NCBI GenBank assembly: GCA_934277945.1
Contig: CAKQWA010000002.1
Coordinates: 162,410-226,409, forward strand
DNA: 64,000 bases
Reading direction: 5' to 3'
Origin: an uncultured Alphaproteobacteria bacterium
GTDB taxonomy: Bacteria; Pseudomonadota; Alphaproteobacteria; CAAGCB01; CAG-977
Position numbers and translations under genes: made by a program. Positions 11,181 through 34,600 of this stretch are shown here, piece after piece. The notes below the pieces were generated by a model. It ran no database searches. It was not told the DNA's origin and worked only from the letters and a program-made list of their open reading frames with translations. Each line of letters begins with the position of its first letter. The stretch's first letter is position 1.

Positions 11181-11195
11181 TTTTCACCCGTCTTG

Positions 11196-12062: not shown

Positions 12063-12194
12063 TTCGATTTCTCCGAACAGACACAATTCTATACACTTAT
12101 ATATCTATCATCTTTTTATTAAAGATAAAAACCTTTTTATTTTTTTTCGGAACGGGGTAAAAATAGAGCATCCAACATACGAAAGGACGAAAAA

Positions 12195-15280: not shown

Positions 15281-15685
15281 ATGACCCTCAATCCGTACGC
15301 CGCCGCCGATGTTTCCGCCAAGCCGCAAAATGAAATGGAAGCGCGCGCCTTGGTGCGAACCGCCTCTCGTTTAAACGCCCTGAAAGAAAACTGGCCCCCC
15401 AAAAAAGAGGATTTGAACACGGCGCTGGAACTCAACCGGAAACTCTGGGCGTTCTTTTTAAGCGAAGTGTGCGACGAAAGAAACCCCCTGCCGCACGACA
15501 TCAAGCAAAACATCTTCAATCTGGCGCATTTCATTTTCAAACACACGTTCAACATTCAGGCGAAGCCCTCCGCCTCGTCGCTGGACGTGCTGATCAACAT
15601 CAACATGAACATCGCGCGCGGTTTGAACGAACAATCGAAATTCAAAGCGGAACAGGCGGCGAAATCCGGCGGCGCGACCGCGTAA
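15281..15685 (+). CDS. flaF: Flagellar biosynthesis regulator FlaF-like protein
   Basis: 134 aa. The pattern 'NPYA...NRKLWAFFLSEV...NPLPHDIKQNIFNLAHFIFKHT...INMNIARGL' matches the alphaproteobacterial FlaF family. Confidence 0.5.
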   Translation: MTLNPYAAADVSAKPQNEMEARALVRTASRLNALKENWPPKKEDLNTALELNRKLWAFFLSEVCDERNPLPHDIKQNIFNLAHFIFKHTFNIQAKPSASSLDVLININMNIARGLNEQSKFKAEQAAKSGGATA

Positions 15686-16875: not shown

Positions 16876-19800
16876 TTAAAACAGTTCGGGAATCCCCTCG
16901 TCCTCCGCCGCCGCGGGCGCTTTCGCCGCCGCCTGAGCCGCCGCTTTCGCCGCCGCGTTCTTTGCGTTCGTCTGCTGCGGCGTTTTCGGCGTTTCAAGCG
17001 TCGTTTGCGGCGCTTGCTGTTGCTGGTTCGGCATATTCGGATTGTAGCCGTAATACGCGTTCGCCGGCATTTGCGACGGGGACTGCTCGACTTCGGCGCC
17101 GCTTGTCAGTTTCTGGGAGGAAGCGTCGATTTCACGCTGTTTCTGCTCTCTCAATTCCTGTTCGCGCTTGTCGATCAGTTTTGTCGTCTTTTCGCTCTGA
17201 TAATTCATGTCGTCTTCTTCGTCTTCCGTTTCCGTGCGCAACCACAAATCCTGATTGGCAAAAACGGTGATGCGCGTTCCCGACGGCACGAAAGAGCCGG
17301 ACGAAATCTGTTGCAGTTCGGAGAAGATCGCGTCGAAAATCTCCTGCATTTTGTCGGAGAAGTTGGAACGCGCGTCGTCCAAAGCCTGCTGTTTGCCGGT
17401 CGTCGTCGTCGTCGTACTGCCACCGGAAGCCGTTTCGACGGTCGTGCCGCCGTCCGCCATCATCCACAAAGCCGCGGATTCGACGACCGTTTCCAAAAGC
17501 GGCAGACCGAAGCGTTTCAGCAACTGCAAGTCCAAATAAGCGGGGATGCCGCCGCGTCCCTGCGCGTCGCCCGAAGATCCTTCCGGTTCGAACACGAATC
17601 CGACGCCGTCCGGACGAATCAAACGCGTCCACACGATAGCGATTTTCGACGCCGCCATCGGTCCCGCGCCGCTCTTGCCATCGCCGCCGGAGCCGATTTT
17701 CCCGATCAGGCGGCTGCCCGCCGGAATCAGAATGTTTCTGCCCGTTTCGGAATAAACGTTTCTTTCAACCACGGCGGAAACCGGCACGTTCGTATAGCGC
17801 GAATCAATGGAGCGCACCAAAACGGCGGGAATCGCCTTGTCCGCCAGAATCATGCGGCTCATGTCGACACGGTAGGAGGACGCGGTTTTCTTGATGCCCT
17901 GATCGCTCCAATCCTTGCTGACTTTCTGTTTGCGCCGGCGCTGTTTCTCGATATCGCTCTGCGACGCGCTTTGCAGTTGCCCCATGCTCATGGATTTGCG
18001 GCGCGCTTCCTGCATCGCCTGCAACTGCGCGATTCTTTGCGCGGAATAGCGTTCGCTGCGCCCCTGTCCGTAGCCTTTGATGCCGTACGCACCGCCGGAT
18101 TTGATGCCTTTACCGGCGGGAATTTCCGCCCCGCCCGTTCTTTTGGCTTCGCGCTCGGCATCGATTTTCGCCTGTTCCTCCGGCGACGTCTGCGTGCCGA
18201 TGATATTGCCGTCCGCGTCAATGATGTCGCCGTTTTCGTTGACGTAGCCGATGATGTTGCCGTTTTCGTCGACAACCGTGCCGTCGTCCAGAATGATGCC
18301 GAGTTTTTTACCCGTTTTAGAATAGGCGTATTTCGGTTTCGCCGCGTCGTTCGCGGGCGTAAAAACGCCGTCGTCCCAAGAACCGATGACGTTGCCGTTG
18401 ATGTCGACAATCTGACCGTCGGCGTTAATTCTGCCGATTTCCACGCCGTTCAGATTGACGACGCGGCCGTCGGGCAAAATCAGTCCGATGATGTTGCCGT
18501 CGGCGTCGCGCAACGGTTCGCCCTCCATGACCGACCCGATGACGTTGCCGTTCATGTCGACGACCGTGCCGTCGGGCAAAACTCTGCCGATGATGTTCCC
18601 TTCGTTGTCGCGCACATAGCCGTCCGCGCCGACAATGCCCAAGAACTCGCCGTTTCTGCCGATTGCCATTTTCACGGTTTCGTTGCCGGAAACGGCGGAC
18701 ACCTGACCGATGACGTTGCCGTCCAAATCGACGACCGTGCCGTCTTCCAGCACGCGCCCGATGATGTTGCCGTTCTCATCGCGCACAAAGCCGTCTTCGC
18801 CGACCGTGCCGATGACTTTGCCGTCGGGTCCCAAAACCTGCCTGCCGACAAATTTTTCGCTTGCGCCGACCTGCCCCAGAATGTTGCCGTCCATATCGAC
18901 GACCGTGCCGTCGTCCAGCACTCTGCCGATGACGTTTCCGTTCGCGTCGCGCACCAGACCGTCCGCGCCGACCGTGCCCAAAAGCGTGCCGTCAGGACCG
19001 TACACCTTGCGTCCCTCGAACGTCGCCTGAACTTTGCCGATGGGATTGCCGTTCATATCAACGACCGTTCCGTCCGGCAGAACTCTGCCGATGACATTCC
19101 CGTTCGCGTCGCGCACCAAGCCGTCCGCGCCGACCGTGCCCAAAAGTTTGCCGTCGGGTCCGTACACCTTGCGTCCCTCGAACGACGGCGCGACCTTGCC
19201 GATCGTTTTGCCGTTCATGTCGACGACCGTGCCGTCGGGCAGAACCCTGCCGATGACGTTCCCGTTCGCGTCGCGCACCAAACCGTCCGCGCCGACCGTG
19301 CCCAAAAGTTTGCCGTCGGGTCCGAACACCTGTCTGCCCGCGTAAGAGGGCGCCGCCTTGCCGATGACGTTGCCGTTCAAATCGACGACCGTGCCGTCGG
19401 GCAAAACTCTGCCGATGACGTTGCCGTTCGCGTCGCGCACCAAGCCGTCTTCGCCGATCGTGCCCAGCACTTCGCCGTTCGGTCCCAGAACCTGCTGATT
19501 GGCGAACAGGGAAGCCGGCACGCCGTCTTTCGTGTTCATCATGGAAATCCAGCACAAGTCCGTTCCGTCCTCTTTCACCGCCTTGCCGTTCGCCAGCAGT
19601 TTGCCCAGCACTTCGGAAGCCGTGTTGACGATTGAACCGTCATAATGCACCTTACCGACGGCGACGCCTTTCATTTTACATTCTTCGCCGATAGGCACGA
19701 CGCGCCCCAAGAATTTCTTGTCCGGCGTCAGCGTGCGCATTTCGGACGTGACGTAGCCCAAATCCTTGCCTTTGACGTTAACCACGCGTCCGTAGGGAGT

Positions 19801-22800
19801 CACCGTGCCGACCACGTCGCCCTTTTTGGAAATGACCAGTCTGCCGAAAGGCACTTCCACACCGATTTCCTGTCCGCTTTTGTAAACGGCTTTGCTTTGC
19901 TCGTTGACGACGCCCAGCGCGAAGCCCGTCACGGGATGCACGACGTAGCGGTTGCCGAACACGCGCCCGAGAACACGCCCGTGTCTGTCAACCAGATAAC
20001 GCCACCCCGCCGCCGCGCCGATGATGTTCTTTTCGGCGTCCAGCACCATGCCGTCCTGCGTGAAGCATCCGAGCGGATTGCCCTGATAGTCGATCACTTC
20101 GCCGTCGCCGACCGTGCGTCCGAACGACGAGCCGTCAAACGTGACGACCACGCCTTTCTGCACCAGTCTGCCGAGATTTTTGCCGCGTTTGTCGCGCACG
20201 ACGCCGTCGAAATCGACGCATCCGATTTCATCCATGCGCCCGTTCAGCACGCGCCCCTCGGCGTTCAGATTGCCGACGACCTCGCATTGAGAGCCGACCA
20301 CCGCGCGCGGTGAAACGACCAGACCGATCAAAGAGCCGTCGTTGTCGATCACGCCGCGGTCGTACGTCATGCGGGCGATGTTTTTGCCGTTTTTGAACAC
20401 TTCGCCCGTATCCATGCTCAACACGCCCGCGTCCATGTTGCAGGACGGCGCCAGAACGTACGGATCCATCACGCCGTAGCCGATGACGGCGTTCATTTTG
20501 TCCGTGACCGTTTCGTCGGGCAGGAACTTGCCGACCGTGCCGCGCTGTTGATGCACGACGTCGCCGCGCATGGAAATGCGTCCCAAAAAGTCGTTGGACG
20601 GCGTTAAAGCCAAGCCCGAAGACGATTTGAAGCCGACGACCTGACGTTCCGCGTCCGTCTGCATTTTGCCGATAATTTTGCCGTTGAAGTCGGCGACCGT
20701 GCCGTCCGTCCAGACGCGCCCGATGATTTTGCCTTTGAAATCGCGCACCAGAGCGTCGCGTCCGACAACGCCGAGCGGCTTGCCGTCGAAATCGACCGCC
20801 TGTCTGTTGATGTACTGCGCGGGCGGGTCGATTTGCCCGATGATTTTATCCTTGTCGTCCTCAACCGTGCCGTTGGGCAGAACTTCGCCCAAAACGGCGT
20901 TTTGACGGTCGACGACGTTGTTGTCGTTGTCAACGCGCCCGATGATGTTGCCCGTTTCGTCGTAAGCGCGCAGGGAAACGCGCCCGATGACGCGCCCGTT
21001 CAAATCAAGCACCGTGCCGTCGCGAATGACGCGCCCGATGATTTTGCCGGAGGAATCGCGCACCAGACCGTCGGCAAACACGACACCCAGCACCGTATCG
21101 CCCTGTTGCGAATACACGTCGTGATCCACGAAATTCGCGGGGGCTTCCAACTGCCCGAACACCTTGTTCGCGGAATCGTTGACCAAGCCGTCGGAATCCG
21201 CCGTGCCGACGATTTTGCCATCGTCGGAAACGACTTTGCTGTTTTCGTCCGTCTTGCCGATGAACGTGCCGAAAGAATCGTACGCTTTCGTTCCCACGGC
21301 GGGTTTGACGGAAAGCACTTTTTTGCCCTGCGCGTACTGCCCGATGACTTTTCCGGAAGCGTCCAGCACTTCGCCGGTCGCGGACACATAGCCGATGATG
21401 TTGCCGTTCGCGTCCATAATCGGTTCGCCGACGGCGACGATTTCGCCGATTTCGCGTCCCTCTTTGTCGAAAACGCGGTTGGACATATCGGCGTAACCGA
21501 TGATGTTGCCGTTCAAATCGACGACCGTGCCGTCCGGCAGAGCCGTCCCGATGACTTCGCCGTTTTTGCCGATGACCTGACGCACGCCCATGAACACGCG
21601 CCCGACCGTCGCGCCGTTTTTATCGACGACGCGTCCGTCCGGCAACTGCAAATTGCCCAGAAATTCGGATTTCTTGTCCAGAGCGATCCCCTCCGGCAGA
21701 ATACGCCCGATAATCGCCATGGAAGCGTCGAAAACAGGCACGCCCGCGGGAATGACGCCCGCGATTTTAACGTGTTCCGCGTCTTCAATGTAGCCGGTGC
21801 TGACGACGCGTCCCAAACGCTTGTCGCCGCCCAAAGTCAACGCTTCGCCGCGTTCGTTGCCGCGCCCGAACAGAACGCTGTCCTGATTAAGAGCCAAACC
21901 GGTGGAAAGAGGCGTCCCCAAAAACGCGGGCTTGCGCCCCAGCATACTGATCAGACCGTCCGCGCGCAGACAGCCGACGGGCTTGCCCTCCTCGTCGATC
22001 AGTTCGCCCTTGTAGTTCGTATAGCCCAGATACTCGTTCCGGTTGCCCAAAACGCTGCCGCCCTTGACAACACGTCCGATAAACTTGTCCTTATCGTTGA
22101 AAACGGCGTTATTATCCTGAATGTAGCCCAAACGCTCCATGCGCGAATTGACGATGCGCCCGTCGGGAATGATTCTGCCCAGCGGCAGACACGGCATCTG
22201 CATCGCGTAAGCGTCGCGCGGCACGACGCGCCCGACTTTCGAGCCCGAAGCGTCAACGACGACACCGTCGGAGAACACGCGCCCCAAAACCGCGCCTTTG
22301 ATATCCGTCGCCATCGCGTCGGGAGCGACAAAACCGACGGAACGCCCTTTGGCGTTGATGACGCTGTAATTCGGCAACAGTCCGCCCAGCACGACGTTTG
22401 TGGAATCAATGGCGAGGCGCGACGGATCCATACAGCCGATGACCATGCCTTTCTTATTGACGACCTTGCCGCTTTCGTTGGCGAAGCCTTCCACTTCCCC
22501 CGATGAACCGACGACAATCGGCGTATACGGTATCGCGCCGGTCACCATGCCGTCTGCCCCGAAAACATCTCCCGAAGAACTCAACGAACCTTCCACCTGA
22601 CTTGTCGAAACGGAAACGATCTTGCCTTCCGAGTCAAGATACCCCAAGACTTCACAGCCGGCTCTGACGGCAACGGGAACATCGTCGTTCACCCAAGCGC
22701 CCGTCACCTGCCCCGTCGACGACAGAAAAGCACCGTCGGGCTGAATGCGCCCTTTCAGTTCTCCGCCCGAAACAACCGCGCCGTCCGGCATAATCCGTCC

Positions 22801-24411
22801 GATAAACGCGCCCCGCCGTCCGACGACAACCCCTTTGGGACGGACGCTGGCGATAATTTCCATATCAGAGTTTAAAACGGTGGATTGCGGGGTCAGGCAC
22901 CCCAGCGGATCGCCTTTGTGATTGATCGGCGTGCCGTCCGTGTCAATGCGCCCGATGATGTTGCCGTCCCAGTCCAGCAGCGGACCTTCCTGCACCAAAG
23001 AGCCGACCGGATTGCCGTTCAAATCCAGAATGACGCGCGTGGAGGTCATGTGACCGACAAGTTTGTTGTCTTTCAGCACGGAGCCGTCCGTGCTGACGCG
23101 CCCGAGAACGCGGCATCCGGATCCGACGGCGATACCGGTTTGCACCGTGCGGCTGATGATGTTTTTATTGCTGTCAATAATCAGACCGCCGGGCAGAGCC
23201 TTGCCGATGACCGTGCCGTCTTCGTTGACGACGCGGCCGTCCGGCAGAACGACGCCGAGCGAACGCCCCATGCCGTCCACGACGCCCCCTTGCGGCACCA
23301 GCGTGCCGAGAGGCTTGCCTTCCAAATCGACAACCGTGCCGTCGGGGTTCAAATAGCCTATCAGATTTCCCGTTTCATCGACGACGCGGCCGTCCGGCAG
23401 AACTTTGCCGATGACGTTGCCCTTTTTGTCGTACACGTTGCCCGCCGCAATCGCCGAGCCGATGACGTTGCCGTTCAAATCCACGATCGTGCCGTCGCGC
23501 AACGCCCTGCCGATGACGTTGCCGTGCGAATCAACGACGCGCCCGTCGGGCAGAACCGTGCCGATGACTTCGCCGTTCGGTCCCAAGGCGATTTTCTGCC
23601 CCTCGACGACGCCGATGATGTAACCGTCCGCGTCCACAACGGTGTTGTCGGGCTGAACCATGCCGATTTTCTTGCCGTCCAGACCGATGGCGACGCCGTT
23701 TTCGTCGGCGTACCCGATCGGTTTGCCGTCCAGACCGAGAATCAAGCGTCCCTTGTCCTGCAAATTTTCAATCATCGTGCGTTTTTCGCCCGACGGACTT
23801 TCCACGTTGTCGCAAACGCCGCACATACTTGTGTCGATTGCGGTCGCGGAAACGGGAATGACGACTTTTTTACCGATGATGCCGAAAGTTTCGTCGCGCC
23901 AGCGCACCGCCAGATTGTTTTGAATGGAGCGCGCCTGCTTGGGCTCCCAGCGCACGACGACGTTGCAAACCGCGTCGCCGGTCAAGATTTCGTTCGCCTT
24001 GCACTTGTTTTCCAGCGTAAAGCCGTCTTTCTGGACTTCTTCAAAATCGACGGAAATGATGCTGACCTTGCCCGACGAACTGGACAGCGAAACGGTCGCT
24101 TCCGCCTCGGTGTTCAGCACGACCTGATCGAAACGGATCGCTTCGGGGGTCGCCACGACGCGCACCGTCGTTTTTTCAGGCATGTTGATTTGCAACTGGT
24201 CGACGCCGGTTCCCGTCACGCCGGACGACGCGTCAACACCGTCGCCGACGGTTAGCTTTGCGTCCTCCTTGACCGTTTCGACGCCGCCCATCAGAATAAC
24301 CAACCCGATCAGAAACGCGAACAACGCTCCCAATCCGACGAACAGAATCGTCCGGTTTGTCTTTTTCAAATATGTTTCAGACGAGCTGAGATATTCTTCT
24401 TCGTCAGACAT
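16876..24411 (-). CDS. virB10: Giant VirB10/TrbI-family T4SS protein (2511 aa) with a huge internal tandem-repeat array; CagY/DotG-like architecture
   Basis: Short cytoplasmic N-terminus plus one TM ('ILFVGLGALFAFLIGLVILMGG'). The C-terminal region 'VPVSAVVERNVYSETGRNILIPAGSRLIGKIG...IAIVWTRLIRPDGVGFVFEPEGSSGDAQGRGGIPAYLDLQLLKRFG' matches the VirB10/TrbI barrel domain. About aa 225-2075 consists of ~17-aa 'LPDGTVVDLNGNVIGKV'-type repeats. A Q/A/K-rich tail follows. Confidence 0.8.
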   Translation of the reverse strand: MSDEEEYLSSSETYLKKTNRTILFVGLGALFAFLIGLVILMGGVETVKEDAKLTVGDGVDASSGVTGTGVDQLQINMPEKTTVRVVATPEAIRFDQVVLNTEAEATVSLSSSSGKVSIISVDFEEVQKDGFTLENKCKANEILTGDAVCNVVVRWEPKQARSIQNNLAVRWRDETFGIIGKKVVIPVSATAIDTSMCGVCDNVESPSGEKRTMIENLQDKGRLILGLDGKPIGYADENGVAIGLDGKKIGMVQPDNTVVDADGYIIGVVEGQKIALGPNGEVIGTVLPDGRVVDSHGNVIGRALRDGTIVDLNGNVIGSAIAAGNVYDKKGNVIGKVLPDGRVVDETGNLIGYLNPDGTVVDLEGKPLGTLVPQGGVVDGMGRSLGVVLPDGRVVNEDGTVIGKALPGGLIIDSNKNIISRTVQTGIAVGSGCRVLGRVSTDGSVLKDNKLVGHMTSTRVILDLNGNPVGSLVQEGPLLDWDGNIIGRIDTDGTPINHKGDPLGCLTPQSTVLNSDMEIIASVRPKGVVVGRRGAFIGRIMPDGAVVSGGELKGRIQPDGAFLSSTGQVTGAWVNDDVPVAVRAGCEVLGYLDSEGKIVSVSTSQVEGSLSSSGDVFGADGMVTGAIPYTPIVVGSSGEVEGFANESGKVVNKKGMVIGCMDPSRLAIDSTNVVLGGLLPNYSVINAKGRSVGFVAPDAMATDIKGAVLGRVFSDGVVVDASGSKVGRVVPRDAYAMQMPCLPLGRIIPDGRIVNSRMERLGYIQDNNAVFNDKDKFIGRVVKGGSVLGNRNEYLGYTNYKGELIDEEGKPVGCLRADGLISMLGRKPAFLGTPLSTGLALNQDSVLFGRGNERGEALTLGGDKRLGRVVSTGYIEDAEHVKIAGVIPAGVPVFDASMAIIGRILPEGIALDKKSEFLGNLQLPDGRVVDKNGATVGRVFMGVRQVIGKNGEVIGTALPDGTVVDLNGNIIGYADMSNRVFDKEGREIGEIVAVGEPIMDANGNIIGYVSATGEVLDASGKVIGQYAQGKKVLSVKPAVGTKAYDSFGTFIGKTDENSKVVSDDGKIVGTADSDGLVNDSANKVFGQLEAPANFVDHDVYSQQGDTVLGVVFADGLVRDSSGKIIGRVIRDGTVLDLNGRVIGRVSLRAYDETGNIIGRVDNDNNVVDRQNAVLGEVLPNGTVEDDKDKIIGQIDPPAQYINRQAVDFDGKPLGVVGRDALVRDFKGKIIGRVWTDGTVADFNGKIIGKMQTDAERQVVGFKSSSGLALTPSNDFLGRISMRGDVVHQQRGTVGKFLPDETVTDKMNAVIGYGVMDPYVLAPSCNMDAGVLSMDTGEVFKNGKNIARMTYDRGVIDNDGSLIGLVVSPRAVVGSQCEVVGNLNAEGRVLNGRMDEIGCVDFDGVVRDKRGKNLGRLVQKGVVVTFDGSSFGRTVGDGEVIDYQGNPLGCFTQDGMVLDAEKNIIGAAAGWRYLVDRHGRVLGRVFGNRYVVHPVTGFALGVVNEQSKAVYKSGQEIGVEVPFGRLVISKKGDVVGTVTPYGRVVNVKGKDLGYVTSEMRTLTPDKKFLGRVVPIGEECKMKGVAVGKVHYDGSIVNTASEVLGKLLANGKAVKEDGTDLCWISMMNTKDGVPASLFANQQVLGPNGEVLGTIGEDGLVRDANGNVIGRVLPDGTVVDLNGNVIGKAAPSYAGRQVFGPDGKLLGTVGADGLVRDANGNVIGRVLPDGTVVDMNGKTIGKVAPSFEGRKVYGPDGKLLGTVGADGLVRDANGNVIGRVLPDGTVVDMNGNPIGKVQATFEGRKVYGPDGTLLGTVGADGLVRDANGNVIGRVLDDGTVVDMDGNILGQVGASEKFVGRQVLGPDGKVIGTVGEDGFVRDENGNIIGRVLEDGTVVDLDGNVIGQVSAVSGNETVKMAIGRNGEFLGIVGADGYVRDNEGNIIGRVLPDGTVVDMNGNVIGSVMEGEPLRDADGNIIGLILPDGRVVNLNGVEIGRINADGQIVDINGNVIGSWDDGVFTPANDAAKPKYAYSKTGKKLGIILDDGTVVDENGNIIGYVNENGDIIDADGNIIGTQTSPEEQAKIDAEREAKRTGGAEIPAGKGIKSGGAYGIKGYGQGRSERYSAQRIAQLQAMQEARRKSMSMGQLQSASQSDIEKQRRRKQKVSKDWSDQGIKKTASSYRVDMSRMILADKAIPAVLVRSIDSRYTNVPVSAVVERNVYSETGRNILIPAGSRLIGKIGSGGDGKSGAGPMAASKIAIVWTRLIRPDGVGFVFEPEGSSGDAQGRGGIPAYLDLQLLKRFGLPLLETVVESAALWMMADGGTTVETASGGSTTTTTTGKQQALDDARSNFSDKMQEIFDAIFSELQQISSGSFVPSGTRITVFANQDLWLRTETEDEEDDMNYQSEKTTKLIDKREQELREQKQREIDASSQKLTSGAEVEQSPSQMPANAYYGYNPNMPNQQQQAPQTTLETPKTPQQTNAKNAAAKAAAQAAAKAPAAAEDEGIPELF
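18190..23740 (-). repeat. Coding tandem-repeat array inside virB10
   Basis: The array is roughly 17-aa DGxVVDxxGNVIG units, on the order of 100 copies. They are grouped into 54-aa super-repeats. A sub-region near 18.75-19.5 kb holds near-identical 162-bp DNA copies. Confidence 0.7.
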
Positions 24412-24415
24412 GGTG

Positions 24416-25954
24416 TCATTGTGTCCTTATCACCGTGCAGGCGACGCCGCGGCGTCCCAACTGCGAACATAACGAGTTGCCCTCTTTCAGACTTTCGACG
24501 GGTCCGATGCGCAAACGGAACAGATCCTTGCCGTCGCCGTCCGCCGAAGCGTCAATCGAATAGAACGGCGTGAATTTGCCCAGCAAATCCTTGTTCTTGC
24601 GGGAAATGTTGCCCCACAAGCGTTCCAAATTCGCAATTTCGGCGTCGCTGCCGAATTCGACGGAAATCTTTTCGGGCAGGTTCTTCGCCGCCGGACGCTT
24701 GACATAGCCGTCCGACACCCCTGCACAGCCGGCGCAATTCATTTGAGCCAAGCCCGCCATCGCCTGCGCCGCCGTCATCGGCGCGCCGCTTGTCATCGTG
24801 TTCTTGATTGTCGCGCCGCCCGTCATGTTCAGCCCCGACGTTTTCGGATTGATCGGCGCGGGGACGTATTCGGGCTGGACGGCGGGATCGTAACTGACCC
24901 ATTCCGTGCCGAAAGCGGGATCTTTGCGGATGCGCAGGCAGACAATCCGCTTGCCGTTGCGCAAAACCATGTCGCCAACGCCCTCGACCACAATCAAGCG
25001 GCTGTGCGGTCCCCGAGTTCTGAAACCGACGGGAACTTCGGAGCCCTGCACCAAAAGGTTGACAATCGGACGTTGCAACATGCTCAACGCCTTGGGTCCC
25101 AAGTCGATATAGGTGAAAATTTCGTCGCGCCACACGCGTTCGGGGGCGATTTCAATGTCGTCGGGGTTCGGAATGAACACGTCGATGTCGAAACGCAGTT
25201 TTTCCGGATCGACGGGAATATCGTCAAGCCAGCCGTCGCCGGCGGGATTCGTTTTCGTCGTTCCGCCCTTGCCGACGGCGGAAGAACCGCCTTTGCCGTT
25301 GCGGGAAACGCCGCCGCCCGCGCCTTTCGCCACCGTTCCCGCCGCCATGGGCGTCGTGCCGGAAGCGTCGGGCGTGTAATTCGCGTCGTTGACGACGATG
25401 TCGACGACCGCGTTCGTGATGCGGTCGGTGTTAAACGTTTCGCTTCTTAAATAAAAGACGTATCTGTTGCCCGACCGTCCCATGACGACCATGTTGCTGT
25501 CCACGCCGACGAAGCCGGAGGAGGCTTCCGCGTAAACCAGCAGGGCGTTCGGCGCGGCGAACGTCGTTGAAAAAGCGACCTGATCGCCGACCCAGACCGT
25601 GTCCAGCAATTCCCAAGACGGAAAATTGATCAGCGTGACCATGCCTTCGCGAATGCGCAGCGGCAGAACCAGATCCGGCGTCCATTGATAGCGCGAATAT
25701 CCCGGTTTCGTCTGCCCCTCGCCCAGATGCTCCATCGGCTTGTTCCACGCCTTTTGCTGCATCCCCCAAGACGACAGATGACTGATGTCCATTTCGGAAT
25801 ACTGCCCGTTCGACTGTTCGATTGCGGCGTCCATTGATTCGTAAGAGGACGGGGCGGCTTGCGCGAAAGAGCGCGACGGCAGGCAGGACAGCCCGAAAAC
25901 CGTTGCGGCGAGAATGGATTTTTGAATAAATGTTTTCACGGCAGCACCTATCAT
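24416..25954 (-). CDS. virB9: VirB9/CagX/TrbG-family T4SS outer-membrane core protein with a C-terminal SPOR (peptidoglycan-binding) domain
   Basis: Signal peptide, then a VirB9 N-domain ('RIREGMVTLINFPSWELLDTVWVGD...NRYVFYLRS'). After a Gly-rich linker comes a VirB9 C-domain ('EIFTYIDLG...LRNGKRIVCLRIRK'). The last ~80 aa, 'ISVEFGSDAEIANLERLW...DLFRLRIGPVESLKEGNSLCSQLGRRGVACTVI', is SPOR-like. The start overlaps the virB8b stop by 1 nt. Confidence 0.7.
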   Translation of the reverse strand: MIGAAVKTFIQKSILAATVFGLSCLPSRSFAQAAPSSYESMDAAIEQSNGQYSEMDISHLSSWGMQQKAWNKPMEHLGEGQTKPGYSRYQWTPDLVLPLRIREGMVTLINFPSWELLDTVWVGDQVAFSTTFAAPNALLVYAEASSGFVGVDSNMVVMGRSGNRYVFYLRSETFNTDRITNAVVDIVVNDANYTPDASGTTPMAAGTVAKGAGGGVSRNGKGGSSAVGKGGTTKTNPAGDGWLDDIPVDPEKLRFDIDVFIPNPDDIEIAPERVWRDEIFTYIDLGPKALSMLQRPIVNLLVQGSEVPVGFRTRGPHSRLIVVEGVGDMVLRNGKRIVCLRIRKDPAFGTEWVSYDPAVQPEYVPAPINPKTSGLNMTGGATIKNTMTSGAPMTAAQAMAGLAQMNCAGCAGVSDGYVKRPAAKNLPEKISVEFGSDAEIANLERLWGNISRKNKDLLGKFTPFYSIDASADGDGKDLFRLRIGPVESLKEGNSLCSQLGRRGVACTVIRTQ

Positions 25955-26670
25955 CAGTCGGTTACGCTTTCAATGGAATATCCGTCGACGGAAAAGCCGA
26001 GCGGATTTTTCAAACGGTTGACATATTTCACTTCGTTTTTGGCGAAGTACCGTACCATGACCTGCACTTTCCAGCGGGACAAAGCGGGTTCTTCGGCTTC
26101 GGGAAGCATATCGCGCGTTTGCAGATACACCACCCACAAATTTTGCTGGCGCACGACGGATTCGATACGCACTTCGCGGGTCAGCCCGTCGATTTTGATG
26201 CGTTCCAGCCAATCGCGCAGAGTTTTGTTGAATTCGTTGTAAACGCGGTCGGACGACATCCAGCGGATCGGACCGTCGACGCCCCAGCGGAACGACATTT
26301 CGTCGATATCGGCGACCATGGTGTTGCGCAACAGGACGTACTGGCGGATCAACGCTTCGGTAATGATGTCGGAAGCCGCCAGATTCGCGCTGAGCGGCTG
26401 GACGCGCACGACCTGTTCGTCGCGGCTTTGGAACGTCAGCAGATACGGCTCGACGCGCTTTAACGGCAGCAAATTCCCTATGGCGAGCATTAAAACGATG
26501 TTCGCGCTCAAAGCCACGCCCGACACAATGGCGAAAGCGCGCGCCGTCCACAAATAGCGGCGTTCGCGCAACGCGTCGACGGACACTTCGGAAATTTCGG
26601 GCGTCGGAATTTTCGCCTTCGCCTTTCCGGAAGCGTTGTTTTTCTGTGCGGGAGCGGCGGGTCTAGCCAT
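25954..26670 (-). CDS. virB8: VirB8-family T4SS inner-membrane protein, paralog b
   Basis: Bitopic protein with a cytoplasmic N-terminus, the TM 'AFAIVSGVALSANIVLMLAI', and a periplasmic NTF2-like domain ending with the VirB8 hallmark 'NPLGFSVDGYSI'. Confidence 0.7.
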   Translation of the reverse strand: MARPAAPAQKNNASGKAKAKIPTPEISEVSVDALRERRYLWTARAFAIVSGVALSANIVLMLAIGNLLPLKRVEPYLLTFQSRDEQVVRVQPLSANLAASDIITEALIRQYVLLRNTMVADIDEMSFRWGVDGPIRWMSSDRVYNEFNKTLRDWLERIKIDGLTREVRIESVVRQQNLWVVYLQTRDMLPEAEEPALSRWKVQVMVRYFAKNEVKYVNRLKNPLGFSVDGYSIESVTD

Positions 26671-26691
26671 AGCGTTTCATCCTCGGTCAGA

Positions 26692-26871
26692 TTACGACAT
26701 CAACCATTCGGGCAAACCGGGTTTCAAGTCGATTTGCATACAGGCGCACGGCGATTTTTTCAATTCGGAATAATCGGGTCCTATGCCGACGGGTTCGGTT
26801 TCATAAATCGAACTGCACGCGCCCAGCGCGGCGGTCAATGCGAAAATTAAAATCAATCCTGTTTTTTTCAT
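26692..26871 (-). CDS. Small lipoprotein (59 aa), VirB7-like by position and size
   Basis: Not in the ORF track (<60 aa). The minus-strand ORF reads 'MKKTGLILIFALTAALGACSSIYETEPVGIGPDYSELKKSPCACMQIDLKPGLPEWLMS'. It has a lipoprotein-type signal with Cys at position 19 (LGAC lipobox) and sits between the two virB8 paralogs. Confidence 0.45.
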   Translation of the reverse strand: MKKTGLILIFALTAALGACSSIYETEPVGIGPDYSELKKSPCACMQIDLKPGLPEWLMS

Positions 26872-26935
26872 CGCGTTCTTCCTGTCTGTCTTTTTTTCTT
26901 TTATCCGTTTATCGACCTTTTGTCCATGAGAAAGC

Positions 26936-27640
26936 CTATTTTTTCTGCTTGGCGACGTTATATTGCATCACCGTGAAGCCCATCGGGTTTTTCAAACGGC
27001 GCGCCATGATGGCGTTAAAGGCGAAATAGCGGAATTGAATGGTGGCGATCCAGCTGGTGACAACCGGTTCGACCGCGCCTTCTTTCAGTTCGCGGGTGTC
27101 GAAAAACACCTGCCAGTTGTTCCAGCCGTCCTTGATAATGCGCTTCATGTCGACTTCGACGGTCTGTTCAATGGCTTTTTTGCCGTCGACGATGTCCTCG
27201 ACGTAGCGTGTGGCGAATTTTTCGTACACGGACGGAATGGACAGCGAAGCGATAACCCCGCCGTAGCCCCAGTTGACTTTCATTTCGCGCAGATTCTGCA
27301 CGACGGAGTGGCGAACGGACACATATTGACGCACATACATTTCCGCCAGCGTGTCCATTTTGGGCGCGTCGGCGTGAAGCGGCTCGAAATAAGCGAGATT
27401 TTCGGAAAAAGTCGGCGACGTGACGACGAACGTGTTCGCCTCCGCCTCGCCCGCCAGATGCAGCAGCATCAGGGACAAAAGCGCGGAGGTCGCCGTAAAG
27501 AAAAAGCACAAAGCGCCGAAAATGCGCGATATCCACATAAACTGCGTGGCGCGGTTTTCGGCAATGGCTTCCGCGCGGCGTTTTGCGGCGTTAATGGCGG
27601 CGTTTTGAGCCTTTTTAAGTTGCGTATAATTTTTTTCCAT
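26936..27640 (-). CDS. virB8: VirB8-family T4SS inner-membrane protein, paralog a
   Basis: 234 aa with the TM 'IFGALCFFFTATSALLSLMLLHL' and a periplasmic domain ending 'NPMGFTVMQYNV', the NPxGF VirB8 motif. It is the first gene of the cluster. Confidence 0.7.
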   Translation of the reverse strand: MEKNYTQLKKAQNAAINAAKRRAEAIAENRATQFMWISRIFGALCFFFTATSALLSLMLLHLAGEAEANTFVVTSPTFSENLAYFEPLHADAPKMDTLAEMYVRQYVSVRHSVVQNLREMKVNWGYGGVIASLSIPSVYEKFATRYVEDIVDGKKAIEQTVEVDMKRIIKDGWNNWQVFFDTRELKEGAVEPVVTSWIATIQFRYFAFNAIMARRLKNPMGFTVMQYNVAKQKK

Positions 27641-29039: not shown

Positions 29040-29735
29040 ATGTCGAAAAAGCAAGTCGTGCTGTTGCCCGCGCTGTTGTGCACGCCGGAAATTTTCATCA
29101 ATCAGATTCACGCGTTGCAGCCGCACGCGGACTTTCACACGCCGGACACGACGAAGCGCGCGGATATTGCGTCTTTGGCGAAAGACATTCTGGACGGCGC
29201 GCCGGAACGGTTCGCTCTGGCGGGGATTTCAATGGGCGGCTACGTCGCGTTCGAGATTCTGCGTCAAGCGCCGGAACGCGTGACGGATTTGATATTGATG
29301 GACACGTCCGCCCTGCCCGACGCGCCGGAAAAGCGCGCGAAACGGGCGCAGATTGTGGAATTGGCGAAAGCGCGGGGCATTGAAAGCGTCGTGCCCGCCG
29401 TTTTGCAAAGCCTGCTCGCCCCGCAGTATCGCGACTTGTCGCAGTTGGGGCGTTTCATGACGTTCATGGCGCAGACAATCGGCGTTCAGGGGTTCGCCAA
29501 TCAGCAAAGCGTCATCGCCTCGCGTCCTGATTCGACGGATTTGCTGGGACAAATCGACATTCCGACAACGGTGGTCGGCGGCGCGTGCGACGAAGTGACA
29601 CCGATTGACAAAATGCGCGAACTGGCGGCGCAAATTCCGCACGCGCGCTTTGTATCCGTCGCGGACAGCGGGCATCTGCCGCCTTTGGAAAATCCGGCGG
29701 CGGTCACCCGCATCTTCCAAGACGCGTTACTTTGA
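29040..29735 (+). CDS. Alpha/beta-fold hydrolase
   Basis: 231 aa with 'GISMGGYVA' (GxSxG) and Asp/His residues in the C-terminal half. It starts 9 bp after the isochorismatase gene. Confidence 0.65.
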   Translation: MSKKQVVLLPALLCTPEIFINQIHALQPHADFHTPDTTKRADIASLAKDILDGAPERFALAGISMGGYVAFEILRQAPERVTDLILMDTSALPDAPEKRAKRAQIVELAKARGIESVVPAVLQSLLAPQYRDLSQLGRFMTFMAQTIGVQGFANQQSVIASRPDSTDLLGQIDIPTTVVGGACDEVTPIDKMRELAAQIPHARFVSVADSGHLPPLENPAAVTRIFQDALL

Positions 29736-30716
29736 TTTCCTGTTTTTCTCGCGGAAAGCCTTGATGCGCGCCTGCTGGCGTTCCTTGTAGAGTTGCTTTT
29801 TGGACTTCGGCGTGCCGTCGTCGTTGTACAGGCGGATGCCGTATTCGTCTTTCAAAGCGGACACGTCGTTGCCGGTGATTGAAGCGGACGGCGCGGACGC
29901 GGCGGGCGCGTTCTGGACGGCGGTTTCAGCCGCCTGATTGTTTTTCGCGCTCTGTTTCGCGTTTGACTTTTTAGCGTTTTTCGACGCGGGCTTTGTCTGT
30001 TTCGCCGTTTTGTCGTCTTTGACGGCGGCTTTCTTGCCGGCGGCGTTCTTCAAGTCTTTGGCGGGCTTCGCTTCTTTTTTCTGCGTATCGGCGGATTGAA
30101 CGGCGGACGCTTTTTTCATCTTGGTGACAGCCGCGCCGGAAACGCACTCCTTGCCGCTCCAATACGGCGTTTTGCGGTTGCAGATGTCGCATTTTTGGAA
30201 TTTGACGCACACAAGCGTGCCGTCGTCGTCAATGCCGGAAACGGCTTGATCGCCGGCGTCTTCACCCTCGACGGAAGCGTTCTGCGGCGCGGGCGCGGCG
30301 GATTTTTCAGAAGCCGCCTCCTCCTGCTTTTTCTGTTTTTCCTCGGCGGCTTTTTGCTTGGCAAGATCGGCTTCCTGCTGTTTGCGCAACTTGCGCAGGC
30401 GTTCGACTTCCTTGCGCGCTTCTTCTTGCTTGGCTTCAAATTCCTTGCGGTATTCGGTGTGCGATTTCACCGCCTGCCCGCCGCCCAAAACCCACGGTTG
30501 AGCGCGCCGGCGGGAGTGAATTCCCAGCATATCCTCGGCGGTGGTGTCGGTCGTGTCGTATCCGGCGCGGTCGTCATTTTGGATTTGTTCGGGCGTGTAG
30601 ACGGCATACGCGCCGCCGACGCCGGTCGGATCGCCGGAAGAACCCAAACGCTGTTGCGCGTGCGCGGGCAAGCCGGCGGCAATCAGCAAAGCGGAGAAAA
30701 GAAACCATTTTTTCAT
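29727..30716 (-). CDS. Secreted Lys/Ala/Glu-rich low-complexity protein with a CxxC...CxxC-like cysteine cluster
   Basis: Signal peptide 'MKKWFLFSALLIAAGLPAHA'. It has coiled-coil-like KQEEA repeats and the cluster 'CVKFQKCDICNRKTPYWSGKEC'. It is the third gene of the cluster that follows the 2141-aa protein. Confidence 0.45.
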   Translation of the reverse strand: MKKWFLFSALLIAAGLPAHAQQRLGSSGDPTGVGGAYAVYTPEQIQNDDRAGYDTTDTTAEDMLGIHSRRRAQPWVLGGGQAVKSHTEYRKEFEAKQEEARKEVERLRKLRKQQEADLAKQKAAEEKQKKQEEAASEKSAAPAPQNASVEGEDAGDQAVSGIDDDGTLVCVKFQKCDICNRKTPYWSGKECVSGAAVTKMKKASAVQSADTQKKEAKPAKDLKNAAGKKAAVKDDKTAKQTKPASKNAKKSNAKQSAKNNQAAETAVQNAPAASAPSASITGNDVSALKDEYGIRLYNDDGTPKSKKQLYKERQQARIKAFREKNRKSK

Positions 30717-30728
30717 GACAAATCTCCT

Positions 30729-31559
30729 TTACAAACAGGATCTGTAACGCACGACGCAGGACGCGCCCTTGTATTTCAGCAATTCGACGGCGACCATGTA
30801 CTTTTCAAGCGAGGTGACGCCCTCTTGCGCGCGAATGAAGTTGACGACGCCTTTGGGCAGGAAAACGGCGTTTTTGTCGTCGATGCCCTTGGCGTAAATG
30901 CGGTAGACGGTGGAAGCCTGATCTTCGCCGCCGGAAAATTCGGTGAACGTGCCGTCGTCGTTTCTGGTCATGCGCTTTAAGAAGCCCAAATGCTTGCTCC
31001 CCGGTTCGCGCAAATCGACGGCTTGGAACAGATAGTGCATACTTTTGGTGGCGTAGCGGTAGGGCACGCGCCCGTAAGTGACGACCATGGCGACGGTGTC
31101 GTTGTTGTCGGCGGACAGACTGCACTCGGCGTTGTCGACGGCGGCGGTCAGCACGGGCTCGTCGATTGTCCCGCGCACGCAGAAGTACGCGCTGGTGAAG
31201 CCGTCCGCCATTTTAAGATATTTGTAGGCGTTGATGTGATATCTGCCGCCCTCCGCCAGTTCGGAATTTCCGGCGACTTTGCCGTTCGCGCCGACGGTGA
31301 AGATGATTCCGGAATCGGCGGGGTATTTGGGTTTTGCCTCGCCGACAATGACGGAGGACGCACCCTGCTTTATGGCTTTGTCGTAAACGGTCAGTTTTTT
31401 GGTCGCGTATTCCGCCGCCATTTTGTTTTGTTGCAGCATGGACGACACCATGGCTTCGTACACGGGGACGACGTAATCGTCGGGAGCCTTGGCGACTTCG
31501 CCGAATTTCCCCCATGCGAGCATGGAAATCAAGCTGGCTAAAACGACCCAAAAAAACAT
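30729..31559 (-). CDS. Hypothetical protein with an N-terminal hydrophobic anchor or signal
   Basis: 276 aa with the N-terminus 'MFFWVVLASLISMLAWGKFGEVA'. It lies 56 bp downstream of the giant TadE-like gene. Confidence 0.45.
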   Translation of the reverse strand: MFFWVVLASLISMLAWGKFGEVAKAPDDYVVPVYEAMVSSMLQQNKMAAEYATKKLTVYDKAIKQGASSVIVGEAKPKYPADSGIIFTVGANGKVAGNSELAEGGRYHINAYKYLKMADGFTSAYFCVRGTIDEPVLTAAVDNAECSLSADNNDTVAMVVTYGRVPYRYATKSMHYLFQAVDLREPGSKHLGFLKRMTRNDDGTFTEFSGGEDQASTVYRIYAKGIDDKNAVFLPKGVVNFIRAQEGVTSLEKYMVAVELLKYKGASCVVRYRSCL

Positions 31560-31615
31560 GGCGTTAATCCTTTTGTTGCAGGCGGGGCGTTCGCGGGGAA
31601 CGTCCCGCCCGTTCG

Positions 31616-34600
31616 TTATTTATGCTTCATGAGCAGATTCGGGTTGTCAACCGGTCTGACGCGCCGCTGTTCGTAATCCATGTACGCGTTCGGGAAGTTG
31701 AAGTTCTGCGGATCGAAGTAGCAGTAGGTGTGCACCAGCGCCTGCATCGAGCCGGAGAAAATGCCGCCCATGTTCCAGAAGTAATCCGGCGAAGTGGCGG
31801 ACGTTTTGACCTTGTTCGGCGTCACGGTGCCCATGGCGACCGCCCAACCGCACAAAGTTTTCCCGCCGTATGCACCGCAATCGTAACGGGTCGTATCGGT
31901 GCGCAACCTTGTATCCATTGTAATTTGCAGACAATTTGCCGGCGAGTTCGCGCACAGCGGCTTCGCGGCGACGGCGATGCGCGTCGCGGGCTGGTAGATG
32001 AACGGCACTTCCGTGCGGTAGTCCTGATGTCCGAAGTTCTGGAAACGCCGGCTTGTCTGAATGACGTCCGCCAGATACCTGTTCGGCTGATCGGGATCCG
32101 TATGCGCCTCCCAACCGTAAGTGGGGTCGCCCTCTTGCGAGTCGTCTTCTTCGACAATGGGCAGTTTGCTCAAATCGTTCACGACGTAAAATTCGCCGCC
32201 CGTCGTCGTCGGACCGATAGGAATGGTGCTTGCCGTCGAATTCGACCCCGCGTCGATGAAGATGACCTTGCCCACGTCGAACGCTGTCGGCGTGACGGTC
32301 ATAACGGGCAGATAACCGGCGGGGCAAATGCCTGCCAAATGGTCGTCAATCCCGACAACGCTGCTTCTGCTTGAAGAGTTATACGATGTAAAGCTCACAT
32401 ACATCCCCGGCGCCGGCACGACCCCCATGAACGGGTGGGTCAGACAGCCCGCGGACGACCCGCCGGAACAATGGTAATAATTGTTCGCGGCGTAGGACAC
32501 GAACATGGAACGCGGGTTGACGTTGTACGCCTTGTAGCCGCTTGCGTTCAGCGTGCAGTAGTTTTTGTACCCGAAGCGGTTCATCAGCGAGCAGTCGGTT
32601 TCCCACGCCTCCATGTAATAACTGTTGCGGCTGGCATAGTGGTACTTGTCCAACGTGGCGTTGTTCGTGTCCATATACCGAGCCGGCTCTTTCGCCAATC
32701 TGCCGCGCGGCACGACGAACGAGCAGTTTCCGGGGTTGGAGTTGTAGTAGTTGTAATAACCGTCTTTCCAACCGTCTTCTTTATACATATTTCTTGTCGT
32801 CGCATCGGTTGTGTCGCAGGGCCACGGACCTTTCGCGTATTGGTTGGTTAATGTGTAGATCGACTTCAACACATAGTTCGGCAGAATGTCGCTCAAATTC
32901 GCACCGCCGCGGCTGGTCAGCTTGATGTCGTTCATGACGGACACATACGCGGGGTCCAAACGGAAAGCGTCATAGATTTCCTTGGGTACGTTGGATGTAC
33001 TGCCGTATCTGAACATGGAGGAAGTCGGCTGATACGACTGACCGTCGCCCAGCGCATAACTGTCCCTGCGTCCCGTGGAATAGTTGTAACCGCCGGTTGC
33101 AGTGTCGTTGTCAATCTTTCGAACCTGACGGAACGTCTCGCTGCTGGTATAAGTGTAATATGTCGCATTGTTCCTCCAGTTTATCGTTTGATCCACAGTA
33201 TCGCCGAACTTGCGGGCTTCGTCCCTGTTGACTTCGATGTAGCCGTCCCTGATTTTCCAGTAGCGCGTATCCAAGTCGATGCCTGCCTGACCGTTTCCGG
33301 CAAGTTGCAATCTGCCGTACGACGTGGTTGCCGAACCGTTCCAAGAAGTGTTCGCGGGCTGGTGGACGATTGTCGAAAATTCGGCGATCGGCGGCGTGCC
33401 GTGCGTCGTGTCCGAGCCGTATTGCGACGTGATAATCAAACCGCCGATGATTTTGTTCTGCGCGCCCATGGTGTAGAAACGGGGATCCGCCCTTGTCGCG
33501 TACCTCGGTACGTCAGAACTTAAAGATACGGAGTTCACCAGCGTCGGATTCGGCATGAAATTTTGCGAAACGACGCTCGACTTATTCGGAAGTTTATAAA
33601 AACGCGTATCCGCGCTATTCGTTGAAATTCTGCCGAACGGCGCCCCGTTCAAACCCGAACCGACAGCGTTAATCTGCTCTCTTTGGGTTATAAAGCCGAA
33701 TCTGGCATTTTGCCAGCCTTGCGGCGAATTCGCCGTAAATGCAGTATCAAGCGTTTGTTCGCCCGTACCGACCACAACGCCGGCGGTCGCCCCCAACTTC
33801 AAGTTCATGCCGACGGCGGAAAAGTCGTTCCAAGCAGTACTGTCCGGAACGCGCACAATGTTGCCAAGCAAACCGGACGTGACGTGTATGCCCGAATCGC
33901 CGATCGCCATATAGTCTTGACGGTACGACACGTCGGAAAGCAACTGGCTCTGCGCAAATCTTCTCATTGACGTGCCGGGGGTTTGCGACACGGCAAGCGT
34001 CGTCAAATCGGACGTCGCCGTCAGCAAATTGAAAGTGTCGTAATGGATGCCGCCGGTGCTTCCCGCCGTCATGTTCAACGAAGCGCGCTCCGTCGTATAC
34101 TGTCCTGTCGCTTTGAAAAAGTCGGACGTGGCGCGGTGCTGGTTCTGCCATTCCTCAATGTTGCGGAACGGCGTGCGCGGGTCGAAAAGCACGCGTTCCG
34201 TGCGCAACGAGGAACGCAGTTGCGGCAAAGCGGTGTCCTGAACGCTCGCGTACGAGTCCATTTCCAGCGTCGACCCTTGCAACAGACCGGTGGAGCCGTA
34301 TTCGTCTTCACCCGTAATGTTTTCAGCCACGGCGACCGCCGACAAGTTCAGCGACGGAATGTAGGACAAATGATACCAAGAGTTGTATTGCGCATCCCGT
34401 TTATGATCCGAACGCGGTTGCGACAGCGAGTGCGACCGCAATTTCAACTGCGCCGCCTTTGTCAGCGATTTCCATACTTCGTTGTTGCGCGCGGCTTCCG
34501 AAACCTGTCCGCTTAAAATGTACCCTTTGTGCACGTCGGACGAAACGGCGGACAAAGTCGCCACAGGCGAAGCCGGTTGCATGGCGTCCTGATACGACGA

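Follow-up and report, generated by a model that had tools for sequence, protein, structure and literature searches.

Why do two diverged virB8 genes of one type IV secretion system (T4SS) stand in tandem in a gut bacterium, and what is encoded in the 265-bp gap between them? The question arises from a stretch of 64,000 nucleotides of an uncultured Alphaproteobacteria bacterium (the window; positions 162,410 to 226,409 of contig CAKQWA010000002.1, assembly GCA_934277945.1). For this stretch an initial annotation had proposed two VirB8-like proteins of 234 and 238 amino acids (aa), both ending in NPxGF, with a VirB7-like lipoprotein open reading frame (ORF) of 59 aa between them, and had related the arrangement to the rvh-type T4SS of Rickettsiales. 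Our analysis suggests that the small protein is very probably the VirB7-type lipoprotein of this system. The two VirB8 proteins probably go back to a lineage-specific duplication, parallel to the one in Rickettsiales, with both copies functional. VirB7 lipoprotein and lineage-specific VirB8 pair together form the best explanation that we can offer for the locus, and we hold it with fair confidence. The three genes in question are the following.

26936..27640, minus strand: virB8-a (product B8a), 234 aa; Pfam VirB8 (PF04335) match at 9.2e-14, transmembrane (TM) segment at aa 37-64, NPMG at aa 218-221.
26692..26871, minus strand: virB7-like lipoprotein gene, 59 aa; signal peptide, lipobox LGAC with Cys19, supported by conservation and synteny.
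25954..26670, minus strand: virB8-b (product B8b), 238 aa; Pfam VirB8 match at 1e-19, TM segment at aa 43-70, NPLG at aa 222-225.

The small ORF lies inside the gap, as had been described, with an ATG at 26871, a Shine-Dalgarno-like AGGAAG 8 nt 5′ of it and a stop at 26692; its translation begins MKKTGLILIFALTAALGACSS. The N-terminus consists of MKK, a hydrophobic stretch and the lipobox, and the mature peptide has the conserved form YE.EPVGIGPDYSELKKSPCAC...LPEW. A PROSITE-type lipobox pattern fits the window protein and its relatives in three sets (41 of 41, 79 of 80 for the set of genome loci, and 70 of 77), in agreement with the lipoprotein-type signal and lipobox proposed initially. The length of 59 aa is just below the 60-aa default of an ORF lister, which would explain why the gene is absent from the ORF track. 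The ORF listing also contains dozens of spurious overlapping ORFs of similar size, so length alone is no evidence for a gene.

A protein search with the ORF retrieved 40 clusters at 57-98% identity. In their alignment the signal peptide varies freely, and 16 columns are invariant, namely Cys19 and 15 positions of the mature peptide (C19, E24, E26, P27, V28, I30, G31, D33, E36, L37, K38, S40, P41, C42, A43 and C44), with C-GSVYEKEPVGIGPDYSELKKSPCAC...LPEW as the mature consensus. A genome scan with one genome per species recovered 80 species-level loci, all of them belonging to uncultured Alphaproteobacteria that live in the guts of humans, ruminants, rabbits, horses and similar hosts; the nearest bear the labels Rhodospirillaceae UMGS1574 and Acetobacter sp. 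CAG:977. The lipoprotein ORF is located directly 5′ of virB8-b on the same strand in all 80 loci, with virB9 and the beginning of virB10 next in line where tblastn picked them up. The rate of nonsynonymous substitution (dN) of the lipoprotein is far below the synonymous rate (dS) (about 0.13-0.2), although all such values are rough in this study because dS is saturated. Because the ORF is conserved across the clusters and in 80 syntenic loci, with dN far below dS, we regard it, judged from its conservation, as a real gene and reject a chance ORF; the conservation in relatives on which the initial proposal had hinged is thus borne out.

When 1.84 billion representative proteins were searched with the family profile, the family grew to at least 197 clusters at E<=1e-3. 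Among the 150 matches listed, almost all are lipoproteins of 48-127 aa with the core [ED]P[VI]GIG...[ED][LM]K[KR]SPCAC; the family motif can be written as PVGIG..ELK[KR]SPCAC, and in the broad family C42 is invariant and C44 nearly so. A word-index search with the lipoprotein alignment returned close relatives alone among the best 120 of 642 matches, and the names of the distant clusters that were looked up are exclusively 'hypothetical protein' or 'MAG Alphaproteobacteria'. By tblastn against 72,556 plasmids, weak matches were located in the T4SS operons of seven alphaproteobacterial plasmids, from Magnetospira, Thalassospira, Erythrobacter, Roseibium, Magnetospirillum, Microvirga and Sphingosinicella. 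All seven are placed directly 5′ of virB8 and 3′ of virB2-B6-like genes, i.e. in the virB7 slot, which together with the 80 syntenic loci confirms the VirB7 position claimed for the small ORF. Six of them are annotated as 'hypothetical protein' and one is uncalled. On plasmid p1 of Sphingosinicella sp. BN140058 (L093:6528-6824), the KSPCAC-type lipoprotein ORF directly 5′ of virB8 is unannotated in the plasmid table used.

The link to a named VirB7 comes from Epsilonproteobacteria. The annotated VirB7 of the Campylobacter jejuni plasmid pVir (WP_002815096.1) reads MKILKISILTITIIFFSACATTNKEIPKKSPCACNYDVIKIS and contains KKSPCAC. An hhalign comparison of the broad family profile with this protein gave a probability of 96.9% at E 1.4e-10, with the lipobox Cys and KSPCAC aligned across a 10-residue gap. 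The pVir VirB7/ComB7-type lipoproteins are likewise encoded by a small gene directly 5′ of virB8 and carry KKSPCAC after the lipobox Cys. pVir also has the conserved Cys in the C-terminal domain of VirB9, and pVir-type VirB8 is among the few plasmid VirB8s that window B8b detects. Unlike pVir, which has a single virB8, the window family has about 10 extra, highly conserved residues between lipobox and motif (..YE.EPVGIG.D..EL) and a conserved C-terminal LPEW tail.

The gene that follows virB8-b provides the putative partner.

24416..25954, minus strand: virB9, 512 aa; Pfam CagX match at 9e-13 and C-terminal SPOR match at 3.8e-5.

An invariant residue of VirB9, shared by 75 orthologs, is Cys339 (...NGKRIVCLRI...); in alignment it falls on the Cys that the C-terminal domain carries in R. 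typhi VirB9a, in pVir VirB9 and in an Agrobacterium VirB9. A [KI]KSP motif stands beside a second conserved Cys in RvhB7 of Rickettsia as well as in the ComB7 proteins of Helicobacter and Campylobacter (Gillespie et al., 2009; PMC2653234). This second VirB7 Cys was proposed to bond a Cys that is conserved in the C-terminal domain of VirB9, which has been shown for VirB7-VirB9 of Agrobacterium (PMC2653234). A disulfide bond between VirB9 Cys339 and one Cys of the lipoprotein SPCAC pair is therefore likely in view of the conservation of these residues and the homology to pVir VirB7. The SPOR domain of VirB9, a peptidoglycan-binding domain, occupies aa 435-510 after a Gly/Ala-rich linker; its cysteine pair C496/C506 is found in 96% of the 75 orthologs, which are 429 to 622 aa long. 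By such a fusion of VirB9 with SPOR, the core complex would be anchored to the cell wall.

Agrobacterium VirB7 and TraN of pKM101 resemble the window protein in being outer-membrane lipoproteins of 4-5 kDa that are encoded 5′ of virB8 and act as partners of the VirB9 C-terminal domain; the disulfide of Agrobacterium VirB7-VirB9 uses a VirB9 Cys at the aligned position (PMC2653234), whereas here the bond is predicted. The window lipoprotein shows no detectable sequence similarity to either of them. A sequence search of the PDB with the lipoprotein family profile yielded no match. The AlphaFold2 (AF2) monomer of the lipoprotein consists of the signal helix alone, with a predicted local distance difference test (pLDDT) score of about 55 for the mature part; such a model fits a peptide that folds on VirB9.

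Two findings weigh against a VirB7 identity. Pfam and NCBIfam scans up to E=10 gave the lipoprotein no match beyond signal-peptide-level noise, and TraN-type VirB7's P[ILV]NK motif, which docks TraN into TraO, is absent from the 59-aa sequence and from the family consensus. Both would also be expected of an entry-exclusion or accessory lipoprotein that is not a core-complex subunit, and EexN-like small lipoproteins do occur in T4SS operons; one such gene stands between virB5 and virB6 in an Agrobacterium plasmid locus. We give this explanation hardly any probability. The position directly 5′ of virB8 and 3′ of a virB6-like gene is constant, the mature peptide is extremely conserved although exclusion proteins usually diversify, and exclusion has no role in a chromosomal system with neither relaxase nor coupling protein nearby; in addition, the family is homologous to annotated pVir VirB7, and VirB9 has a co-conserved Cys in its C-terminal domain. 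Because of the virB7 slot, the lipobox, the homology to pVir VirB7 and the paired cysteine in VirB9, we very much prefer the VirB7-type lipoprotein. By its motif it would belong to a KSPCAC (ComB7/pVir-like) branch of VirB7 that is without a curated model.

Turning to the VirB8 pair, both proteins are well above the curated Pfam cut-off of 23.2 bits (B8a 52.2 bits, B8b 71.7 bits), and they end in LKNPMGF and LKNPLGF, respectively. Coordinates, Pfam matches and C-terminal ends agree with the initial description of two diverged tandem genes, and an identity of 29% over 201 aa between B8a and B8b excludes recent, near-identical duplicates. By hydropathy, each has the single N-terminal hydrophobic segment listed above and a periplasmic VirB8 domain. 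The B8b profile matches VirB8 structures of Bartonella and Brucella, TraE and TrwG at 8e-13 to 1e-5, in addition to a weak IcmL-like PDB match; the R. typhi RvhB8-II structure was not among its PDB matches at E<=10.

Among the 80 loci, B8b is present in all and B8a (as a VirB8-like upstream ORF) in 75, and the NPxG motif is intact in 75 of 75 scored upstream and 81 of 81 downstream copies. The two differ in how they evolve. Identity to the window protein ranges from 22 to 57% for B8a and from 29 to 75% for B8b, with mean column identities of 27% and 40%; dN against close relatives is about 0.38-0.45 for B8a and about 0.19-0.25 for B8b, at saturated dS. In B8b, a juxtamembrane motif errYLWmARaF (ERRYLWTARAF in the window) and a post-TM motif sL.Pl.RVqPF are conserved along with the core. 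In B8a, the conserved motifs are those of the periplasmic core only (dEmlvR.Y...R, EM..rWg..G, NP.Gf), with R104, N218, P219 and G221 invariant, and no juxtamembrane motif is kept.

Is this the rvh arrangement? In Rickettsia, a small virB7 lies between virB8a and virB8b (PMC2653234), and the R. typhi locus reads rvhB9a(-), rvhB8a(-), rvhB7(+), rvhB8b, rvhB9b, rvhB10, rvhB11, rvhD4. The initial statement that virB8-virB7-virB8 is an rvh trait is thus correct for the genus Rickettsia; the layout is not general even within Rickettsiaceae, since Tisiphia and two other loci of this family have rvhB8b without adjacent B8a or B7. A true rvh-type system would mean that both VirB8 genes and the lipoprotein gene derive from the same ancient duplication as RvhB8-II, RvhB7 and RvhB8-I, with orthology hidden by divergence. 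Several likenesses to islet C of Rickettsia speak in favor of it: a small lipoprotein gene between two diverged virB8 paralogs in an order resembling virB8a, virB7, virB8b, virB9b, virB10, virB11; one conserved and one fast-evolving paralog; T4SS genes scattered over chromosomal sites, with no virB2-B6 or virD4 adjoining the cluster in the window; and a [KI]KSP-Cys motif in the lipoprotein together with a VirB9 partner Cys.

The sequences themselves point elsewhere. For this comparison Rickettsia VirB8a/b were taken from the supplementary alignment of PMC2653234 and from a homologue search seeded by one of them, so that Rickettsiales are represented by Rickettsiaceae alone. Against the hidden Markov model (HMM) of B8a, RvhB8a reaches 5-14 bits and RvhB8b 31-42 bits, as compared with 138 bits for its own B8b and 123 bits for a Microvirga plasmid VirB8. 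With phmmer, the best non-orthologous match of B8a is again its own B8b (92.8 bits), while plasmid VirB8 stays at or below 74.5 bits and Rickettsia at or below 13.6 bits. By these scores, B8a and B8b have each other as closest relative and fall in a clade of VirB8 proteins from alphaproteobacterial plasmids, far from both Rickettsia paralogs. In a neighbour-joining (NJ) tree of VirB8, which was built from saturated distances with few outgroups and gives the B8a and B8b groups bootstrap values of only 58% and 26%, neither B8a with RvhB8a nor B8b with RvhB8b was grouped in any bootstrap replicate (0%), contrary to what the rvh assignment had led one to expect.

Gene arrangement and motifs differ as well. 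In Rickettsia the two virB8 genes are transcribed divergently, each next to a virB9 copy of its own, and virD4 follows virB11; in the window both virB8 genes are on one strand and the single virB9 found in its 64 kb is full length and SPOR-fused. NPxG is degraded or lost in RvhB8-II, which has at most 19% identity to RvhB8-I (PMC4676284), while in the window it is intact in both copies and the paralogs share 29%. Further hallmarks of rvh are a duplicated VirB4, a multicopy VirB6 and the lack of VirB5 (bioRxiv 10.1101/2023.02.26.530123). The most distant related systems (L078-L080) have a single VirB8 and the canonical order B4-B5-like-...-B7-B8; in L078, VirB4 and a weak VirB5-like ORF precede the lipoprotein gene. 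Finally, flagellar motor and lipopolysaccharide genes in the window point to an ordinary free-living or commensal cell.

The lipoprotein gives the same picture. R. typhi RvhB7 (L087:5771-5950) is matched by Pfam DUF2706 (PF10913), a 'domain of unknown function' which corresponds to the proposed rickettsial VirB7, and none of 41 members of the lipoprotein family matches this model at E<=10. The hhalign comparison with RvhB7 gave 9.7% for the broad and 71% for the narrow profile, both over signal peptide, lipobox and YE only, which leaves the KSPC motif as the only likeness. The alignment to VirB7, RvhB7 and TraN proposed at the outset therefore had a divided outcome, with a clear relation to pVir VirB7, none to RvhB7 beyond these N-terminal features and the KSPC motif, and no TraN motif. 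Given these scores, the tree, the NPxG motif in both copies and a lipoprotein outside DUF2706, we judge rvh membership to be very improbable, the affiliation implied for the window system is not supported, and a lineage-specific duplication is the probable origin of the pair.

Plasmid systems of Alphaproteobacteria are closer. Window B8b detects VirB8 on 52 of the 72,556 plasmids, mainly of pVir type and on alphaproteobacterial plasmids with KSPCAC lipoproteins. The mating-pair formation type T (MPF-T) plasmids Microvirga pMVF16-3, Erythrobacter aureus, Sphingosinicella p1, Magnetospira, Thalassospira, Roseibium and M. gryphiswaldense pMSR-1 carry the same lipoprotein family in the same slot; the first three have the closest VirB8s (123-142 bits to the B8b HMM), and several have a long VirB9. 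Unlike the window system, they are plasmid-borne, partly typed as conjugative or mobilizable, and have the canonical order virB2-B3-B4-...-B7-B8-B9-B10-B11-D4 with a single virB8 and a VirB10 of normal size. In Candidatus Paracaedimonas acanthamoebae, an Acanthamoeba endosymbiont of the Holosporales (L091), VirB8 was found on three plasmids and is among the closer relatives of window B8b (29% identity, 1e-11); all genes of this T4SS are annotated 'hypothetical', and a search of one strand revealed no KSPCAC ORF.

Are both copies functional? Some of the data argue against this part of our explanation. No B8a copy was found within 6 kb in five loci (L023, L035 and L078-L080), and because B8a is missing from the locus in these 5 of 80 relatives, the machine can dispense with B8a encoded at this position. 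Missing copies, faster evolution and lost N-terminal motifs would also be expected of a decaying or accessory copy. Such a redundant virB8-a, with B8b alone building the machine, would account for a dN about twice that of B8b, for the lower conservation in all regions including the lost juxtamembrane motif, and for the absences from the locus in L023, L035, L063 and L078-L080, of which L023 and L035 are nested among B8a-bearing lineages and point to secondary loss or relocation there. Against decay, B8a is full length, with TM segment and invariant R104, N218, P219 and G221, in 75 of the 80 loci despite saturated dS, and a neutral copy would not last over such divergence; moreover, its dN is well below dS wherever dS can be estimated. 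We hence regard a decaying duplicate as quite improbable and retain two functional copies as the probable state.

Whether the two copies work in the same machine depends in part on how they are expressed. The remaining genes of the cluster are:

16876..24411, minus strand: giant virB10, 2511 aa; Pfam Bflower_2 at 6e-135 (19 stretches), DUF3659, and TrbI at 8e-31.
15879..16856, minus strand: virB11 ATPase, last gene of the operon; NCBIfam VirB11 at 3.6e-42, which is under the equivalog cut-off, and Pfam T2SSE.

From virB8-a through virB7, virB8-b, virB9 and virB10 to virB11, the intergenic distances are 64, 21, -1, 4 and 19 bp, and the virB8-b stop codon overlaps the virB9 start. The terminator scan detected no terminator-like hairpin between the six genes and a bidirectional one at 15849-15876, 3′ of virB11, in promoter and terminator scans that were at chance level overall. 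Because of the short gaps, the lack of an internal hairpin and the hairpin after virB11, we take these six genes to form one operon, and judging from the gene packing both virB8 genes are co-transcribed. The cluster makes up the distal half of a P-type (VirB-like) T4SS operon on the chromosome.

As has been proposed for rvh-II components, B8a and B8b may be unmixed alternatives that give two versions of the machine, or B8a may be a regulator in competition with B8b. The absence of a conserved N-terminal tail in B8a, the part that contacts VirB4 in R388, would permit non-productive or differently wired complexes. A single tight operon, with no internal promoter- or terminator-like site beyond chance, would require post-transcriptional control for differential expression, and the NPxG dimer site, which blocks heterodimers in Rickettsia, is intact here. 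We consider unmixed alternatives unlikely. Stage-specific subunit swapping, which the initial annotation had offered beside heterodimers, is less likely because tight co-operonic packing without an internal terminator disfavors stage-specific expression from this locus.

Adjacent VirB8-fold paralogs that join one inner-membrane subcomplex have a precedent in DotI and DotJ of the Legionella type IVB system. DotJ has no periplasmic domain, whereas window B8a keeps this domain and has an unconstrained N-terminal part. By cryo-EM, the machine of R388 contains 18 VirB8 subunits. In the periplasm their domains are arranged as six trimeric units, with interfaces of two kinds, and the N-terminal tails are bundled as three helices on VirB4, one tail having sparse contacts (PMC9259494).

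Based on these data, we propose the following model. The lipoprotein would be exported, lipidated on Cys19 and anchored at the outer membrane, as its lipobox suggests. Its mature peptide, without a fold of its own, most likely binds the C-terminal domain of VirB9 within the core complex of the outer membrane (O-layer), and the clamp on VirB9 probably involves a disulfide to Cys339. B8b may be the canonical subunit, with cytoplasmic/juxtamembrane motif, linker and NTF2-type core retained. B8a, which appears to retain nothing but the periplasmic core together with the NPxG dimer site and to evolve about twice as fast, might be specialized for the weakly constrained third position of the VirB8 trimer, because periplasmic core and NPxG are kept while the tail is unconstrained. 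Of the possible uses of the pair, we tentatively favor a mixed B8a/B8b assembly with non-equivalent positions within one machine, by analogy to R388. Going one step further, the gut clade might have evolved, independently, obligatorily paired diverged VirB8s in which B8a shed its VirB4-binding tail, so that an asymmetry of R388 type became hard-wired genetically; this we put forward as a rather doubtful speculation.

VirB7, VirB8 paralogy and rvh as such are already known. New are an unmodelled, uniformly unannotated VirB7 family tied to ComB7/pVir VirB7; a second independent, widely conserved within-system VirB8 paralogy with another divergence pattern; and the host, a clade of common uncultured gut Alphaproteobacteria. 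Divergent within-system VirB8 paralogs were stated to be absent from bacteria outside Rickettsiales (PMC4676284, 2015), and the literature searched yielded no earlier account of VirB8 paralogs in gut Alphaproteobacteria, of DUF2706, or of a T4SS in RF32 or in this gut clade. A model built from the lipoprotein alignment would supply the missing VirB7 for many chromosomal and plasmid T4SSs of Alphaproteobacteria and would link them to ComB7/pVir-type VirB7; if the speculation on obligatory pairing holds, KSPCAC lipoproteins would be the missing VirB7 of a large set of these systems. Likewise, the clade would then be a second independent data point on why T4SSs duplicate VirB8, in about 75 species and by a different molecular route (NPxG kept, N-terminal tail freed), and comparison of both cases could separate general properties of VirB8 paralogy from traits peculiar to obligate intracellular life.

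In the giant VirB10, repeats (beta-flower, DUF3659 and a weak RHS match) take up about 2100 aa between an N-terminal TM segment and a TrbI domain at aa 2188-2391; the last 320 residues are a TrbI/VirB10 domain. A homologue of the VirB10 N-terminus follows virB9 in nearly all of the 80 related loci, the full lengths extending beyond the fetched flanks. CagY of Helicobacter is also a giant VirB10 homologue with repeats, which the window VirB10 recalls. The hosts are common, uncultured members of human and ruminant gut communities, and the conservation of a chromosomal T4SS whose giant VirB10 is CagY-like suggests an undescribed contact-dependent interaction with host or neighbour cells.

The cluster is flanked by alpha/beta hydrolases and isochorismatase on one side and by TldD, MotA, MotB and KdtA on the other. 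Pfam and NCBIfam scans found neither virB2-B6 nor virD4 in the 64-kb window, and there is no relaxase near the cluster. A location inside a conjugative element was rejected in view of the missing relaxase and virD4, the housekeeping flanks and an upstream hydrolase gene that is kept in close relatives. MotA/MotB are encoded at 10263..12086. An ORF of 134 aa between virB11 and the next gene (15281..15685, plus strand) resembles the flagellar regulator FlaF, which we take to be a candidate assignment; together with MotA/MotB it suggests a motile organism.

Three co-directional ORFs without a Pfam match are located at 29727..38041 (minus strand), about 1.3 kb upstream of the T4SS operon and past three unrelated genes. 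The largest product, of 2141 aa, has an N-terminal TM segment, and that of 329 aa has a signal peptide; the third measures 276 aa. All three are possibly surface proteins or substrates associated with the T4SS. In more distant relatives (L014:358-5269, L034:70-5258, L004 and L059, plus strand), five co-directional ORFs precede virB8-a. Four of them measure about 250-320 aa, the fifth about 520 aa. A Pfam scan of the L014 set gave no match, and BLAST showed almost no similarity of these upstream ORFs to each other, to VirB5/VirB6-like plasmid genes or to the unknown ORFs of the window. They are not polytopic, which rules out a multicopy VirB6. A hydropathy scan detected a hydrophobic, signal-like N-terminus in all five ORFs of L014 and in two of the five of L034, and the upstream ORFs of these relatives might be VirB5-like or adhesin genes.

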